NCBI GenBank assembly: GCA_016720565.1
Contig: JADKKJ010000001.1
Location: 744,929 to 808,928 of the forward strand
Source: Chitinophagaceae bacterium
GTDB lineage: Bacteria; Bacteroidota; Bacteroidia; Chitinophagales; Chitinophagaceae
Length of the DNA stretch: 64,000 nt
Direction of reading: 5' to 3'
Both the position numbers and the translations under genes were made by a program. The notes under the pieces are model-generated. The model had not been told where the DNA came from. It saw nothing but the letters and a program-made list of their open reading frames with translations, and did no database searches. Positions 44,084-53,549 of the stretch are shown here, piece after piece. The first letter of the stretch is position 1, and each line of letters opens with the position of its first letter.

Positions 44084-45190
44084 TCAGATTTGGGTGATCG
44101 CTGTCACCAGATTTGACCAGCTATAGCGCTGTTTTTCACTGCGAAGATGAGGAATAAAATAATCTTCACCTAATTGGTAGAACCTCCTGATCCCCTCTGC
44201 GATCGCGGCAGGATTTGGTTCCACTACCAGGCCTACTTTTCCATCAGGAACCAGGTCTGGCAGGCCTCCCACATTCGTAACGACCATTGGCTTTTCAAAA
44301 TGATAGGCGAGGGGCGTGACGCCACTTTGTGTGGCATTTCGGTATGGCTGTATCACGGCATCTGCTGCGCTCAGGTAATATTTTACTTCACTGTCGGGAA
44401 TAAAATCAGTTCTTAATATGAGTTTATCCTTTAGTCCCAGGATTTGGATCTTTTCCAGGTATGGTTTTGCATCCTCATAAAACTCTCCAGCCACCAGTAG
44501 TTTAATATCATCCAATTCTTTCATGGCTTCCAGCAGGAGGTCGAGTCCTTTGTAATGACGTATGAATCCAAAGAATAAAATGATATTCTGTTCCGCAGAT
44601 AGTCCTAAATGTTTCCTGGCTTCTGCTTTATTAACTGCCGGACCAAAATTGTCATACAAGGGGTGTGTGACCAGTTTTGCAGGTTTATCTTTTTCAAACT
44701 GGCGAAGGTCCATCATCACTTTTTCACTCATGGTAATAAATCCATCGCAGGCCTTTAAAAAATAGCTGGTGAATGGCCGATCTCCCGGCCTTTTCTCATG
44801 GGGGATCACATTGTCTGCAATGCATACGATCCTTGTATGTTTATTTTTTCGTACCCTTCTGAGAATAGTTCCCAGCGCAGGCCCCATGAAGGGGAGCCAG
44901 AAGCGTACTACGATAAGATCAGCCATTTCTTTTTTCAATCTGTTGCCAATGCTTATCCAATTCAAAGGGTTCACTGAATTGATCACAGAATGGATGCGTA
45001 TGCCCTCTGGCGCAGGTTCATCAGTGTATTGGGTTTTACCGGGAAATAAAAAAGAAGGGTATTGCAGGGAAAATGAATAAATGGAACAGTCATGCCCCTG
45101 GTCGATGAATTCTTTGGCCAGCCGTTGATCAAAACTTGCCAGTCCGCCCCGAAGCGGATGTGCAGGTCCGATAATAATGACCTTTGCCAT
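44084..45190 (-). CDS. Glycosyltransferase family 4
   Basis: IIGPAHPLRGG, FFGFIRHYKGLDLL, YRNATQSGV..VTNVGGLPDLV. Confidence 0.92.
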   Translation of the reverse strand: MAKVIIIGPAHPLRGGLASFDQRLAKEFIDQGHDCSIYSFSLQYPSFLFPGKTQYTDEPAPEGIRIHSVINSVNPLNWISIGNRLKKEMADLIVVRFWLPFMGPALGTILRRVRKNKHTRIVCIADNVIPHEKRPGDRPFTSYFLKACDGFITMSEKVMMDLRQFEKDKPAKLVTHPLYDNFGPAVNKAEARKHLGLSAEQNIILFFGFIRHYKGLDLLLEAMKELDDIKLLVAGEFYEDAKPYLEKIQILGLKDKLILRTDFIPDSEVKYYLSAADAVIQPYRNATQSGVTPLAYHFEKPMVVTNVGGLPDLVPDGKVGLVVEPNPAAIAEGIRRFYQLGEDYFIPHLRSEKQRYSWSNLVTAITQI

Positions 45191-46131
45191 TAAAGTCCTG
45201 TTTTGGTTTCAACCAGGTAGCTGTTTCGTGAAGGTGAATTTCTTGCGATCAGTTCACCAATAAAACCTGCCAGGAATAATTGCATACCTATAATGAGGGA
45301 AGTCAGCGCCAGGAAAAAGCCGGGCTTGTTCGTTAGTGAAAAATCAGCATGTATGATCTTTGAAACAACCAGGTAAATGGATATCCCTAATCCAAGCATA
45401 AAGAATAGCATACCCCAGAGGCCGAAAAAATGCATGGGGCGTTTGGAGAATTTACCAACGAAGGTGATGGACATGATATCCAGAAAACCATTGACAAATC
45501 TTCTCCATCCAAATTTTGACCGGCCATATTTCCGGGCACGATGCTCCACTACTTTTTCGCCGATCTTTTTAAAGCCGGCCCATTTTGCCAGTACGGGGAT
45601 ATAACGATGCATCTCTCCATAGACCTCCACACCTTTTACGGTGCGGTTGCGATAGGCCTTGAGTCCGCAATTGAAATCATGTAAATGAATACCGCTGACC
45701 ATGCGCGTAACGGCGTTAAAGAATTTAGAAGGAATATTCTTGGTAAGGGTATTATCGTAGCGTTTCTTTTTCCATCCGCTGACAAGGTCAAATTTATCTT
45801 CTATGATCATCCTGCGCAGTTCAGGTATCTCATCCGGACTATCCTGCAGGTCGGCATCCATGGTAATGACCACATCGCCACTTGCCGCACGAAATCCTTC
45901 ATTAAGTCCGGCGGATTTTCCATAATTACGCTGGAATTTGATCCCTTTTATGCATGGATTGGAAGCTCTGAGTTGTTCGATCACTTCCCAGGAATTATCA
46001 CTGCTGCCATCATCTACGAATATGATCTCGTAGGTGAAATTATTTTCTTTCATCACCTTTTCGATCCATGCGGAAAGTTCGGGCAATGATTCAGCTTCGT
46101 CTATCAGTGGTATTACTAAACTTAGATCCAT
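45190..46131 (-). CDS. Glycosyltransferase family 2, polyprenol-phosphate (GtrB/ArnC/DPM1-like) type
   Basis: FVDDGSSD, FQRNYGKSA, TMDADLQD, HDFNCGLKAY; two C-terminal TM helices. Confidence 0.92.
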   Translation of the reverse strand: MDLSLVIPLIDEAESLPELSAWIEKVMKENNFTYEIIFVDDGSSDNSWEVIEQLRASNPCIKGIKFQRNYGKSAGLNEGFRAASGDVVITMDADLQDSPDEIPELRRMIIEDKFDLVSGWKKKRYDNTLTKNIPSKFFNAVTRMVSGIHLHDFNCGLKAYRNRTVKGVEVYGEMHRYIPVLAKWAGFKKIGEKVVEHRARKYGRSKFGWRRFVNGFLDIMSITFVGKFSKRPMHFFGLWGMLFFMLGLGISIYLVVSKIIHADFSLTNKPGFFLALTSLIIGMQLFLAGFIGELIARNSPSRNSYLVETKTGL

Positions 46132-46132
46132 G

Positions 46133-46600
46133 TTATTTTCTTCTGCTTAAAAAGGCCGCTGCGCCTGCTGAAAAAGCGGCTCCTATTATCAAATATCTGA
46201 AAATTGAAATGGAAACCATGGCCAAAGCGTATTGTTTTTTCGCTTTCCTGGCAATATCCTCGATCTCCAAAGGTGTTTTATCTCCTTTTTCCTGGTAGTA
46301 CCGGATAGTGGCTGCTTTTTCCTGCTCCGCCAGTTCCGGATGAAACTGAATAAAAATGAACGTAAAGCTTACCATGAATATGGTAACCACAATGAAATGC
46401 CGGAAGGCGGTGGCAAATAGCTGGCCGAAACTACCTGAAATGCCAATAAGTGTCCAGACAATACCCACCAGGTAGATCAGGTAAATAAAATATTGCAGGT
46501 TGGGGTTTAGCTGTTCGTGCCATTTGTCGTAAAGAAGACTCGCAGCGATCATTATAATTGCCGTGATCACTGCTTTTATGGCGGGTGAAAGATTCTTCAT
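46133..46600 (-). CDS. DUF4199-like 4-TM membrane protein
   Basis: Four hydrophobic helices with a soluble loop before the last; its ATG overlaps the upstream TGA (ATGA). Confidence 0.7.
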   Translation of the reverse strand: MKNLSPAIKAVITAIIMIAASLLYDKWHEQLNPNLQYFIYLIYLVGIVWTLIGISGSFGQLFATAFRHFIVVTIFMVSFTFIFIQFHPELAEQEKAATIRYYQEKGDKTPLEIEDIARKAKKQYALAMVSISIFRYLIIGAAFSAGAAAFLSRRK

Positions 46601-47865
46601 GATGCTATAAAATGGCAATGGCCATTATTGATGATGCCCAGGGGTTTTCCTTTAAATGCCTTTCCGATGAATGGCGTATTGCGCGACAGGCTTTTTATAT
46701 CATTACCGGTAAATGTCCAGTTTCTGTTTGGATCGAACAAACTGATACAGGCGGTATTCCCTTCGCGTATGGTTGCCGGGTCCATTTTAAATATCCTTCT
46801 CGGATTGATTGCGAGCATATCCACCAGTTTTGCAACCGGTATTCCATCCACAGCAGTTGCCAGTACGGCGAAGGCTGTTTCCAGTGCTATCATTCCTGGT
46901 TTGGCGTATTCAAATTCAAGGACCTTGCTGTCATTCTCATGTGGCAGGTGATGGGAGGCGAGGCAATCTATTTCCCCGTTCAGGATAGCCTGTTTTAAAT
47001 TCTCTCTTTCCTGGCTGCTTCGAAGGGGAGGGTTTAGTTTGAAAATACTGTCATAGCCCGATACATCCTCATCGCAGAAATAGAGGTGGGCAGGTGTTAC
47101 TGAGCAGCTCACACGTATGCCTTCTTTTTTTGCCTTGGTTATATAGTCGAGGGAACGGCGGGTACTGATACCTGTAAGATGTATAGAAGAATTGGTATAC
47201 TGGGCCAGGTTGATATCTCTTTCCACCATCAATTCCTCTGCCATCGATGGCTTGCCGGCAAGTCCCAGCCGGGTGGAAGCGATCCCCTCATTCATCAATC
47301 CATGGGCGCCGATGGTCTTATCTTCAGGAACCTGTATGATCACGCCTTCAAATGCTTTTACATACTGAAGCGCTTTAAGCAGTAAACCGGATGATTGAAT
47401 ACAATGAAGCCCGTCGCTGAATGCGATGGAGCCACTATTCTGCATATCATACATCTCTGCCAGCTCTTTGCCTTCCGTATTATTGGTAACCGCGCCGAGC
47501 GGATGGATGTTTACTGCAAGATCCCTGCTTTTTTGCTTGATATATTCAACCGATGATTTATTATGGATAACTGGCTTGGTATTCGGTATCACAAATACAT
47601 CGGTGAAACCTCCGGCTGCTGCGGCGGCGGCACCCGACAAAAGCGATTCTTTATGTTCAAATCCCGGATCGGCGAAATCAGAAAATATATCCACCCATCC
47701 TGGTGATATATGCAGACCCTCTGCCTTTATGATCTGATCAGCATCAGCATCAATATTTTTATTTATACGGGTGATCTGGCCATTTTCAATGAGCAGGTCG
47801 ATGGTTTGGCCGTTGTGTGGGGATAGTGGGTCTATGACCCTTGCTTGCTTAATGAGTAGCTTCAT
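46597..47865 (-). CDS. Dihydroorotase-fold protein, predicted catalytically inactive
   Basis: Overall type-I DHOase pattern (AAAGGFTDV..PNTKP, KLNPPLR), but the motifs read DIFSDFADPG, QVPED, TGIST and ASHHLPH instead of DxHxHxREPG, HCED, CHIST and TDHAPH. Confidence 0.85.
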   Translation of the reverse strand: MKLLIKQARVIDPLSPHNGQTIDLLIENGQITRINKNIDADADQIIKAEGLHISPGWVDIFSDFADPGFEHKESLLSGAAAAAAGGFTDVFVIPNTKPVIHNKSSVEYIKQKSRDLAVNIHPLGAVTNNTEGKELAEMYDMQNSGSIAFSDGLHCIQSSGLLLKALQYVKAFEGVIIQVPEDKTIGAHGLMNEGIASTRLGLAGKPSMAEELMVERDINLAQYTNSSIHLTGISTRRSLDYITKAKKEGIRVSCSVTPAHLYFCDEDVSGYDSIFKLNPPLRSSQERENLKQAILNGEIDCLASHHLPHENDSKVLEFEYAKPGMIALETAFAVLATAVDGIPVAKLVDMLAINPRRIFKMDPATIREGNTACISLFDPNRNWTFTGNDIKSLSRNTPFIGKAFKGKPLGIINNGHCHFIAS

Positions 47866-47943: not shown

Positions 47944-48017
47944 CGGGTGGTGGCGCAGCCCGGTAGCGCACTTGCATGGGGTGCAAGGGGTCGCTGGTTC
48001 GAATCCAGTCCACCCGA
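47944..48017 (+). tRNA. tRNA-Pro(GGG)
   Basis: CGGGTGGTGGCGCAGCCCGGTAGCGCA-CTTGC-ATGGGGT-GCAAG-GGGTCGCTGGTTCGAATCCAGTCCACCCGA; TACATTTG promoter at 47918-47925. Confidence 0.97.
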
Positions 48018-48028
48018 CATTGTAAAGG

Positions 48029-48055
48029 AGCACTTCAAAATTGAGGTGCTTTTTT
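48029..48055 (+). terminator. Terminator after tRNA-Pro
   Basis: AGCACTTCA/TGAGGTGCT stem followed by a T tract. Confidence 0.8.
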
Positions 48056-48062
48056 ATTTTTA

Positions 48063-52169: not shown

Positions 52170-53549
52170 TTATCCGTTAGTATGTTTGCTTCTTTTAATG
52201 AACTGGCCATATCCTTTTTCCAGTTTACATTCATTATGGTCTATAGCTATTTTTCCCCTGAGTAAAACCGTTTTTATTTTTCCCTGCAGTTCCCATCCTT
52301 CATACCCGGAATAATCCACATTCATATGATGGGTGGCAGCAGCTATACGATGCTTTTCAGTTGGATCCATAATGATGATATCGGCATCACTGTCTACAGC
52401 AATGGTTCCTTTGCGGGGAAACATGCCAAATATTTTTGCCGCATTGGTGGATGACACCTCAACATATTTATTCAACCCGATCCTGCCCTTATTCACTCCT
52501 TCTGAAAAAAGCAGTTCCATCCGGTTCTCAATGGCAGGATGCCCGTTGGGTATTTTAGAAAAATCTTCTTTGCCCATTAATTTCTGTTCCCATTTAAACG
52601 GGCAATGGTCGGTGGCCACTACATTCACGATGCCCTGGTTGATACCTGCCCATAATGTTTCCTGGTCTTTTTTCTGGCGAAGGGGAGGGCTCATTACCCA
52701 TTTGGCGCCTTCAAAATCCATTTCATACAAAGAGGCATCCAGCAAAAGATATTGTATGCAGGTCTCCACATGAACCTTCTGGTTTCTGAGTAAGGCCTGG
52801 CGTATCGCATTCAATGCTCCTTCGCAGGTAAGGTGAACAATATAGCCCGGGCATCCGGTGTAATGCGCCATATCCGCAAAACGCTCTGTGGCTTCTGCCT
52901 CTGTGATCTCTGGCTGCGATAAGTAATGATAAAGGGGGGATAGTTTTCCTTCTGCCCGGTGTTTAGCTACCAGGTAATCGATCATATCGCCATTGGTGGC
53001 ATGTACATTAATGAAACCGCCCCATTTTTTAACTTCCTCCATCAGGCCGATCATCTGTCGGTCGTCAATCATTAGTGCCCCTTTATAGGCCATAAATGTT
53101 TTGAAGGAAGTAATGCCTTCTTCCTCGATCAATCCCCTGATCTCTTTTTGGGTTTCTTCATTAAAATCGGTGACGGCCATATGGAAACTATAATCGCCCA
53201 CACAATTATTATCTGAACGGCTTCTCCATTCATTCAGTGCTTCGGCCAGGGAATGGCCCTGCTTTTGCAAAATGAAATCGATCACCATAGTAGTGCCGCC
53301 AAATAACGCGGCCCTGGTTCCTGTCTCATAATTATCGCTGCTGTAGGTACCCATAAATGGCATATCCAGGTGCACATGCGGATCTATTCCCCCGGGCATC
53401 ACCAGTTTTCCAGTGGCATCGATCACGGTGTCTGCGTTGGCCGGCAGGTCTTTTCCAATGGCAATGATCTTTTCTCCATCAATAAAAATATCTGCCACAT
53501 AATCATCGGTAGCGGTGATGATCCTCCCGTTTCTGATCAGTGTTGTCAT
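52170..53549 (-). CDS. hydA: Dihydropyrimidinase
   Basis: PGGIDPHVH, SFKTFMAYKG, HATNG, IVHLTC, VATDHCPF; all metal ligands intact. Confidence 0.96.
   Translation of the reverse strand: MTTLIRNGRIITATDDYVADIFIDGEKIIAIGKDLPANADTVIDATGKLVMPGGIDPHVHLDMPFMGTYSSDNYETGTRAALFGGTTMVIDFILQKQGHSLAEALNEWRSRSDNNCVGDYSFHMAVTDFNEETQKEIRGLIEEEGITSFKTFMAYKGALMIDDRQMIGLMEEVKKWGGFINVHATNGDMIDYLVAKHRAEGKLSPLYHYLSQPEITEAEATERFADMAHYTGCPGYIVHLTCEGALNAIRQALLRNQKVHVETCIQYLLLDASLYEMDFEGAKWVMSPPLRQKKDQETLWAGINQGIVNVVATDHCPFKWEQKLMGKEDFSKIPNGHPAIENRMELLFSEGVNKGRIGLNKYVEVSSTNAAKIFGMFPRKGTIAVDSDADIIIMDPTEKHRIAAATHHMNVDYSGYEGWELQGKIKTVLLRGKIAIDHNECKLEKGYGQFIKRSKHTNG

Follow-up and report, generated by a model that had tools for sequence, protein, structure and literature searches.

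We analyzed a 64,000-nucleotide stretch of a Chitinophagaceae genome (the window) and focused on one of its genes, here called pyrC', whose product has the fold of a type-I dihydroorotase (DHOase) and an apparently dead active site. On its strand, pyrC' is followed by genes for a small membrane protein and a family GT2 glycosyltransferase; on its other side lie a tRNA gene and a terminator-like hairpin, beyond which come DUF1415 and a pyrimidine-catabolism operon (preT, preA and hydA) (Table 1). The genome is 3.49 Mb in size and 100% complete. It carries pyrC' at C1:791528-792793 and the gene of the aspartate transcarbamoylase (ATCase) PyrB at C1:971960-972880, with ~180 kb between them (handles beginning with G, C, L and f denote genomes, contigs, loci and families of our sample). 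An earlier note on this DNA had read pyrC' as a maintained pseudoenzyme and had supposed, from its coupling to glycosylation genes, a different partner or a regulatory role.

Table 1. Features of the pyrC' locus, in window positions.
Feature	Position	Strand	Remark
pyrC' (pseudo-dihydroorotase, 422 aa, ATG start)	46597..47865	minus	type-I DHOase fold; active site predicted dead
DIFSDF, former DxHxH alpha-site motif	47674..47691	minus	Aquifex H61/H63 (DIHVH) replaced by F61/D63
AFSDG with D151	47410..47424	minus	D151 equals the Aquifex D153 metal ligand; only unsubstituted ligand
VPED, former HCED beta-site motif	47320..47331	minus	Aquifex H180/C181 (DHCED) replaced by V179/P180
Loop 5 ('loop A') segment, residues 181-212, ..NEGIASTRLGLAGKP..	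47230..47325	minus	holds the best-conserved stretch of the pseudo-copy clade
TGIS, former xHxS beta-site motif	47164..47175	minus	Aquifex H232 (IQHVST) replaced by G232
SHHLPH, former TDHAPH motif	46939..46956	minus	catalytic D305 replaced by H305
DUF4199 membrane protein, 155 aa	46133..46600	minus	PF13858; start overlaps the pyrC' stop (ATGA)
GT2 polyprenyl-phosphate glycosyltransferase	45190..46131	minus	PF00535 and ArnC/PgfS-like NCBIfam matches
tRNA-Pro(GGG)	47944..48018	plus	ARAGORN
Terminator-like hairpin, 16-bp stem	48022-48057		after tRNA-Pro(GGG)

The pyrC' product matches the TIGR00857 profile, the model of the 'multifunctional complex type' (type-I) DHOases, with 361.1 bits against a cut-off of 279.05, and thereby belongs to type I. 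It stays far under every species-level equivalog cut-off (for example, 353 versus 701). Its best solved relatives in HMMER searches are the Aquifex aeolicus DHOase chains 3d6n and 4bjh (E ~1e-90, 38% identity). A homologue search with the product scored 7113 homologues among 8000 candidates; among the matches listed, all are named 'dihydroorotase' by their sources, and the source names of the closest ones are mostly Chitinophagaceae.

Residue equivalences were taken from an HMMER alignment to Aquifex DHOase and from MAFFT alignments. In the Aquifex enzyme, His61, His63 and Asp153 form the alpha site, His180 and His232 form the beta site, and Asp305 is catalytic (PMC3880350). The single active-site zinc sits in the alpha site, the enzyme without metal is inactive, and the beta-site histidines are dispensable (PMC3880350). 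Aligned to this enzyme, the pyrC' product has five ligand or catalytic residues replaced, together with the substrate arginine (R65 in Aquifex, A65 here), whereas the bridging aspartate D151, N95 and H309 are kept. Of the features expected of an active DHOase, it therefore lacks the alpha-site zinc ligands other than D151, the catalytic Asp305 and the substrate Arg65. The loss of both alpha-site histidines and of Asp305 is enough to call the product inactive, and we regard it, from its residues, as a DHOase homologue predicted to be catalytically dead. The earlier note had read the four altered motifs (DIFSDF, VPED, TGIS and SHHLPH) exactly as they stand and had rightly contrasted them with the neighboring hydA (open reading frame (ORF) 52170-53549), which keeps all its equivalents (DPHVH, HATNG, VHLT and TDHCP). 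Its statement that all metal and catalytic residues are substituted applies to the histidines of both sites and to the catalytic aspartate but is a slight overstatement, since D151 is kept.

The replaced positions behave differently at short and long range. Among 121 sequences (the query and its closest homologues, at least 63% identical), F61, P180 and H305 do not vary, position 232 holds either G or A, and position 63 can be N, S, D or H. Class-wide, that is, across Bacteroidia, positions 61 and 63 vary freely and the replaced positions drift between families (F/D, S/S, R/L, G/W and others); position 305 is H in the Chitinophagaceae-level homologues and Q, D, N, G, Y or S in other families. 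Such free drift of the ligand positions is as expected of an abandoned site and speaks against a rebuilt metal site.

The protein itself has not been abandoned. The ratio of nonsynonymous to synonymous substitution rates (dN/dS) of pyrC' is 0.056-0.064 at dS 1.1-1.8 in comparisons with relatives at 82-89% amino-acid identity, similar to those of the neighboring GT4 glycosyltransferase gene (0.066) and of PreA (0.035), and almost all sampled genomes of the class contain degenerate-site homologues. An AlphaFold2 (AF2) model of the product, built on 36 homologues, reached pLDDT 76 and pTM 0.83 and shows the TIM barrel with the adjacent beta-sandwich; Foldseek gave TM scores of 0.87 to 3d6n_A, the Aquifex DHOase in its ATCase complex, and 0.86 to 4bjh_A. 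The stretches of low confidence are the active-site loops (65-71, 96-101, 153-157, 182-204 and 308-324). Judged by its substitution pattern, pyrC' is under purifying selection and maintained; the earlier view that the gene is not decaying is borne out by the dN/dS of ~0.06, by one conserved class-wide clade and by the intact predicted fold (TM 0.87). The notion of a functionless relic, which the lost catalytic residues might suggest, deserves next to no credence beside these values, vertical inheritance across the class and, among the matches listed, a frame that is intact in nearly every match (more than 200 genomes), two of which have in-frame stops. As a separate observation, the copy at G397:C3:109120-110373 has one TAG inside the gene, which may be a sequencing error or a real lesion.

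Catalysis appears to be provided by another enzyme. An intact class III DHOase is encoded in the genome of the window at G000 C1:105252-106589; it matches the Porphyromonas gingivalis enzyme 2GWN with an E-value of 2.5e-140 and keeps all class III ligands (motifs DDQVHFREPG, HCED, HILHIST and ATDHAPH). This 2GWN orthologue is presumed to be the active DHOase that makes the type-I copy redundant. The P. gingivalis enzyme belongs to the same superfamily and is only ~23% identical to the pyrC' product; its ligands (QxH, KCX-type Lys, His and Asp) are all in place, and it is described as monomeric and as having a different loop 5. In a phylum sample, class III DHOase was present in 46 of ~50 members of the class versus 2 of ~150 genomes of other classes, and genomes without it (G154, G074 and those of the other classes) have an intact type-I copy. 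G143 (L069), from another class, carries class III together with a type-I copy that has degenerated (its HxH reads YxR) and is apparently an independent repeat of the same inactivation history. Two further loci touch on this enzyme. In G154, a class member without class III, an intact type-I pyrC lies directly downstream of pyrB (L073/L076, G154:C23:494527-496836), and at G058:C21:162588-163988 the class III frame is split, which may reflect a sequencing error or a real lesion.

A maximum-likelihood tree unites 47 Bacteroidia pseudo-copies in a single clade (support 99/96), within which the branching follows the family labels. The nearest relatives of this clade are intact type-I DHOases from other Bacteroidota classes, many of which are encoded directly downstream of pyrB (G148, G176, G096, G112, G084 and G144), and in L026 and L036 the gene order is pyrR, pyrB, pyrC. 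The PyrB of the window genome, where pyrR and pyrB also stand together (L001), is ~61% identical to the PyrBs of those pyrB-pyrC operons. The position of the intact relatives beside pyrB and the kinship of the PyrBs indicate that the pseudogene copy is the old operon partner of PyrB, relocated. As read from the tree, the clade has a single vertical origin from intact enzymes, and because its nearest relatives are intact Bacteroidota type-I enzymes, this origin is probably separate from that of Pseudomonas PyrC'. Our literature search found no paper that describes a Bacteroidota pseudo-DHOase.

We then considered the relation of pyrC' to the type of PyrB. The earlier note had stated that no pyrB lies in the window, and tblastn indeed found neither a pyrB nor a pyrR homologue there; it had also proposed to look for pyrB and for a second intact DHOase elsewhere in the genome, and both are present. 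The genome encodes one PyrB (307 aa), beside pyrR, and PyrI (PF01948) gave no match in this 100%-complete assembly. In the raw counts for 251 genomes of the class, 224 had a pyrC' homologue and 223 a native-type PyrB, and discordant genomes were checked further where they could be identified by handle. After this follow-up, every genome whose PyrB is at least 59% identical to that of the window genome carries a pseudo-copy. Four genomes that seemed to have PyrB without pyrC' (G298, G363, G327 and G481) carry site-less copies at 25-29% identity, as does G289, first counted without both genes; in all five, a BatA-like gene lies directly upstream of the diverged copy, and a GT2 gene was seen downstream in one (L094). 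Another four that seemed to have pyrC' without PyrB (G310, G395, G435 and G437) have a PyrB split by contig ends or a stop. Even the fast-evolving family f156 pairs a very diverged pseudo-copy with a PyrB of 46-52% identity.

On the other side of this pattern, genomes whose only PyrB is at most 42% identical yielded no pseudo-copy; these are G030 and G126 (both with PyrI), G074, G118, G414, G026, G460 and G483, as well as G380, although all six of its sampled congeners have retained both genes. Nor was one found where PyrB is absent: in G166, from the window's own order, and in G307, G341 and G288 (a 0.5-Mb genome). In the order that contains G030 (probably Bacteroidales), 76 of 81 genomes have PyrI, and no pyrC' orthologue was found, the best matches being class III-like at 24-30% identity. 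The pseudogene copy co-distributes with the native, PyrI-less PyrB and was not found with a foreign or missing PyrB.

Several observations on these genes stand apart from this pattern. In f156 (L105, L107 and L109, that is, G470, G424 and G348, with genomes of ~2 Mb), the pseudo-DHOase frames are 381-413 aa long and 25-28% identical, with motifs such as WVDIGTWTWQPQ and LASWDMNPP, and KLHPPLR and a loop-5-like segment are kept. In G166, a genome of 6 Mb in one contig, no carbamoyltransferase (N-domain of ATCase or ornithine transcarbamoylase), class III DHOase or pyrC' was found; despite its large genome, this organism is apparently auxotrophic for pyrimidines and arginine. One TAA each lies inside PyrB at G435:C2:287295-288202 and G352:C1:118707-119621, which may be sequencing errors or real lesions. 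A covariation of rates between PyrB and pyrC' was dropped, as G174 has a very diverged pyrC' (2.7e-70) and a typical PyrB (5.2e-144).

The surface that the pseudo-copies retain was compared with that of intact enzymes. The most conserved 15-aa window of 39 distinct pseudo-copies is 192-206 (NEGxxSxxLGLxGxP), within loop 5, with a conservation of 0.71, and the same residues score 0.72 with the same consensus in intact enzymes. Of 61 positions conserved to at least 85% in the pseudo-copies, 57 keep the ancestral residue, and no new motif was seen. Loop 5 reportedly contacts ATCase in Aquifex, and a readiness for this contact has been proposed for every type-I enzyme (PMC9771888); loop A becomes ordered when ATCase binds (PMC3880350). 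Our argument from loop 5 depends on the statements in these two papers.

Overall, after weighing these data, the reading that we favor, with modest confidence, is that pyrC' encodes a noncatalytic partner of the PyrI-less ATCase, of the PyrC' or pseudo-DHOase (pDHO) type, which evolved independently in Bacteroidia after displacement by the class III enzyme. The ancestral type-I DHOase would have worked beside PyrB in a pyrR-pyrB-pyrC operon. When a class III DHOase of the P. gingivalis type took over catalysis in Bacteroidia, the type-I copy could lose its zinc site and catalytic aspartate and would have been kept for its ancestral noncatalytic job. PyrC' would dimerize and bridge PyrB trimers into an assembly of DHOase-like and ATCase subunits, as in Aquifex and Pseudomonas, and this assembly would stabilize or activate the PyrI-less ATCase encoded ~180 kb away. 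Homology, ancestry and co-distribution suggest that PyrC' most likely binds PyrB; it may also affect ATCase activity. The dead site under selection, the separate intact DHOase and the PyrB without PyrI all agree with the view of the earlier note, which had placed the product among pseudoenzymes like PyrC'.

A pseudo-DHOase as a scaffold of ATCase is already well known from Pseudomonas (PMC7053772). The PyrC'/pDHO protein of Pseudomonas aeruginosa and P. putida (the pyrX product) is, like the protein described here, homologous to DHOase over its full length (~45 kDa) and lacks the zinc ligands. Schurr et al. reportedly described it in 1995 as an inactive DHOase-like subunit of the class A ATCase. 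In both cases, a separate active DHOase is encoded elsewhere, PyrB occurs without PyrI, the annotation reads 'dihydroorotase', and TIGR00857 covers the protein. However, pyrC' does not lie beside pyrB here, and the active enzyme is of class III instead of the class II found in Pseudomonas. Moreover, Pseudomonas PyrB has a long N-terminal extension that the PyrB here lacks, and complex formation has been demonstrated in Pseudomonas, whereas we infer it here.

The closest match in sequence and structure is the Aquifex DHOase-ATCase dodecamer (3D6N and 4BJH; 38% identity, TM 0.87). The two DHOase-like proteins share the type-I fold, a conserved loop 5 and a short loop 4, and the PyrB of the window genome matches the Aquifex ATCase chain with an E-value of 2e-55. 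The Aquifex subunit becomes active once bound to ATCase, whereas the alpha-site histidines and the catalytic aspartate are gone here. A third parallel is the fungal DHOase-like domain (PMC8442968), which, as in our reading of PyrC', has no active site and is a structural, dimerizing element beside ATCase, with the active DHOase elsewhere. The fungal version is a domain fused into a multifunctional polypeptide, whereas PyrC' is a free-standing bacterial protein.

Several observations weigh against this partnership with PyrB. In the sampled Bacteroidia genomes, pyrC' never adjoins pyrB as the Pseudomonas gene does, and PyrB lacks the N-terminal extension of the Pseudomonas class A chains. This PyrB most resembles the trimeric ATCase of B. 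subtilis as well as the Aquifex chain, so that it could be active by itself. The single genome left outside the pattern, G357, has a PyrB of 50% identity, and no pseudo-copy was detected in its assembly, which is 95% complete and in 300 contigs. G137 (L071), from another class, has class III together with a fully intact type-I copy and is perhaps an intermediate state. Furthermore, related genomes are not independent, and the clearly separate losses are few (G380, G166, the order that contains G030 and the PyrB-less lineages). Finally, pyrC' belongs to an old and tightly packed cluster of a BatA_N-like gene, pyrC', DUF4199 (one or two copies) and GT2.

This cluster is the ground for a different interpretation, in which the dead DHOase was co-opted, independently of ATCase, into an envelope module, where it would serve as a subunit or regulator. 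The other members of this module would be the BatA_N-like protein, DUF4199 and the polyprenyl-phosphate glycosyltransferase GT2. Its role could be, for example, to make the synthesis of lipid-linked sugars respond to the status of pyrimidines or UDP-sugars. In the window genome, the start codon of DUF4199 overlaps the stop codon of pyrC', with GT2 next in line, and the same arrangement of pyrC' and DUF4199 is found in the relatives L087-L090; in other families, pyrC' and GT2 are separated by one or two short ORFs for putative membrane proteins that resemble DUF4199. The BatA_N-like gene encodes a membrane protein of 640-690 aa with the N-terminus PxIIHLFxxRRFKK and abuts or overlaps the pyrC' start in most Bacteroidia families; it lies directly upstream of the pyrC' homologue in L051-L068 (for example, L053:8261-10276, minus strand). 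The full cluster recurs in families f2, f3, f6 and f12, the BatA-like/pyrC' pair also in f5 and f10, and very diverged pyrC' copies keep the context. GT2 adjoins pyrC' in f1, part of f2, f3, f6 and f12.

However, the phyletic patterns of these genes are uncoupled. A GT2 orthologue is kept at 55-63% identity in all five tested genomes without pyrC', and the BatA-like gene persists without pyrC' in G166 and G154; in the latter (L083/L092), no pyrC' homologue lies between the BatA-like gene (C22:348-2351) and GT2 (C22:3625-4557). Conversely, tblastn (E<1e-3) detected no BatA-like homologue in the window genome, which has pyrC', and f5 and f10 carry pyrC' away from GT2. There is also no new conserved motif that would mark a new function. 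The synteny with DUF4199 and GT2 is a genuine and ancient feature but is dispensable in both directions. An envelope role separate from ATCase seems unlikely to us on these grounds, and the partner or regulatory role that the earlier note had drawn from glycosylation coupling is not supported, as the pseudogene copy follows the native PyrB, whereas the GT2 and BatA-like genes persist alone. Nevertheless, the persistence of the envelope synteny leaves some narrow room for a dual or different role. One such version, in which PyrC' binds PyrB and is also wired into the membrane envelope module, would tether the first committed step of pyrimidine synthesis or tune it to the UDP-sugar demand of envelope glycan synthesis; we give it a slim chance. 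To our knowledge, no bacterium has been described in which nucleotide supply and glycosylation are physically linked.

On the other flank, tRNA-Pro(GGG) and the hairpin lie in the 197-bp gap between DUF1415 and pyrC', leaving 78 bp for a pyrC' promoter; a scan for sigma-70 promoters gave 9 matches versus 9.8 expected. The two elements separate the pyrC'-DUF4199-GT2 unit from DUF1415 and the pyrimidine-catabolism operon. A link of pyrC' to that operon, whose adjacency in this genus is incidental, was rejected because the tRNA on the opposite strand and the hairpin intervene and because the adjacency is absent in the 85%-identical relative L087. In two f10 genomes, a homologue of upp (uracil phosphoribosyltransferase) lies a few genes from pyrC' (L066:10506-11150, minus strand, and L067:4851-5498, plus strand), which hints weakly at a local link to pyrimidine metabolism.

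The partner of PyrC' might also be another protein of the pyrimidine pathway, such as the class III DHOase or carbamoyl-phosphate synthetase. The near-perfect co-occurrence of pyrC' with class III DHOase in the class and the loss of pyrC' along with the whole pathway in G166 and G307 would fit such a scaffold. However, the order that contains G030, together with G026, G380, G460 and G483, keeps class III without the pseudogene copy, and what differs there is the type of PyrB; moreover, type III DHOase has been described as monomeric and as differing in loop 5 (PMC9771888). We consider this alternative distinctly improbable.

Still less probable, in our estimate, is ligand binding or weak catalysis through alternative residues, either at a metal site made of D63, D151, H305 and H306 or in sensing carbamoyl-aspartate or dihydroorotate. 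D151, N95, H306 and H309 are retained, H305, H306 and H309 are nearly invariant in Chitinophagaceae, and D59 and D182 are conserved there. Nevertheless, the candidate ligands at 63 (N/S/D/H within the family) and 305 (H/Q/D/N/G/Y/S) are not conserved in the alignments, so that the rebuilding of the site by alternative ligands, which the earlier note had named as an outcome that would refute its reading, finds no support. The substrate Arg65 is lost as well, the loops of the pocket are of low confidence in the AF2 model, and in Aquifex the alpha site holds the sole active-site zinc, without which the enzyme is inactive (PMC3880350).

Returning to the favored reading of PyrC' as a noncatalytic partner of PyrB, what is new beyond the Pseudomonas precedent is the link to the PyrB type, the pattern of class III displacement and the dispensability of the envelope neighbors. 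Thousands of Bacteroidia proteins labeled 'dihydroorotase' cannot be that enzyme, the real one being class III; because the pseudo-copies are mislabeled, metabolic models or essentiality screens that count two DHOases are wrong. The history is a clean natural case of non-orthologous displacement after which the displaced enzyme was retained as a pseudoenzyme, with natural 'knock-outs' in the lineages that swapped or lost PyrB and are also without the pseudogene copy. If the partnership with PyrB is true, the ATCase of Bacteroidia, a class of importance in the environment and in hosts, would be class A-like in architecture and not the Bacillus-like trimer assumed from sequence.

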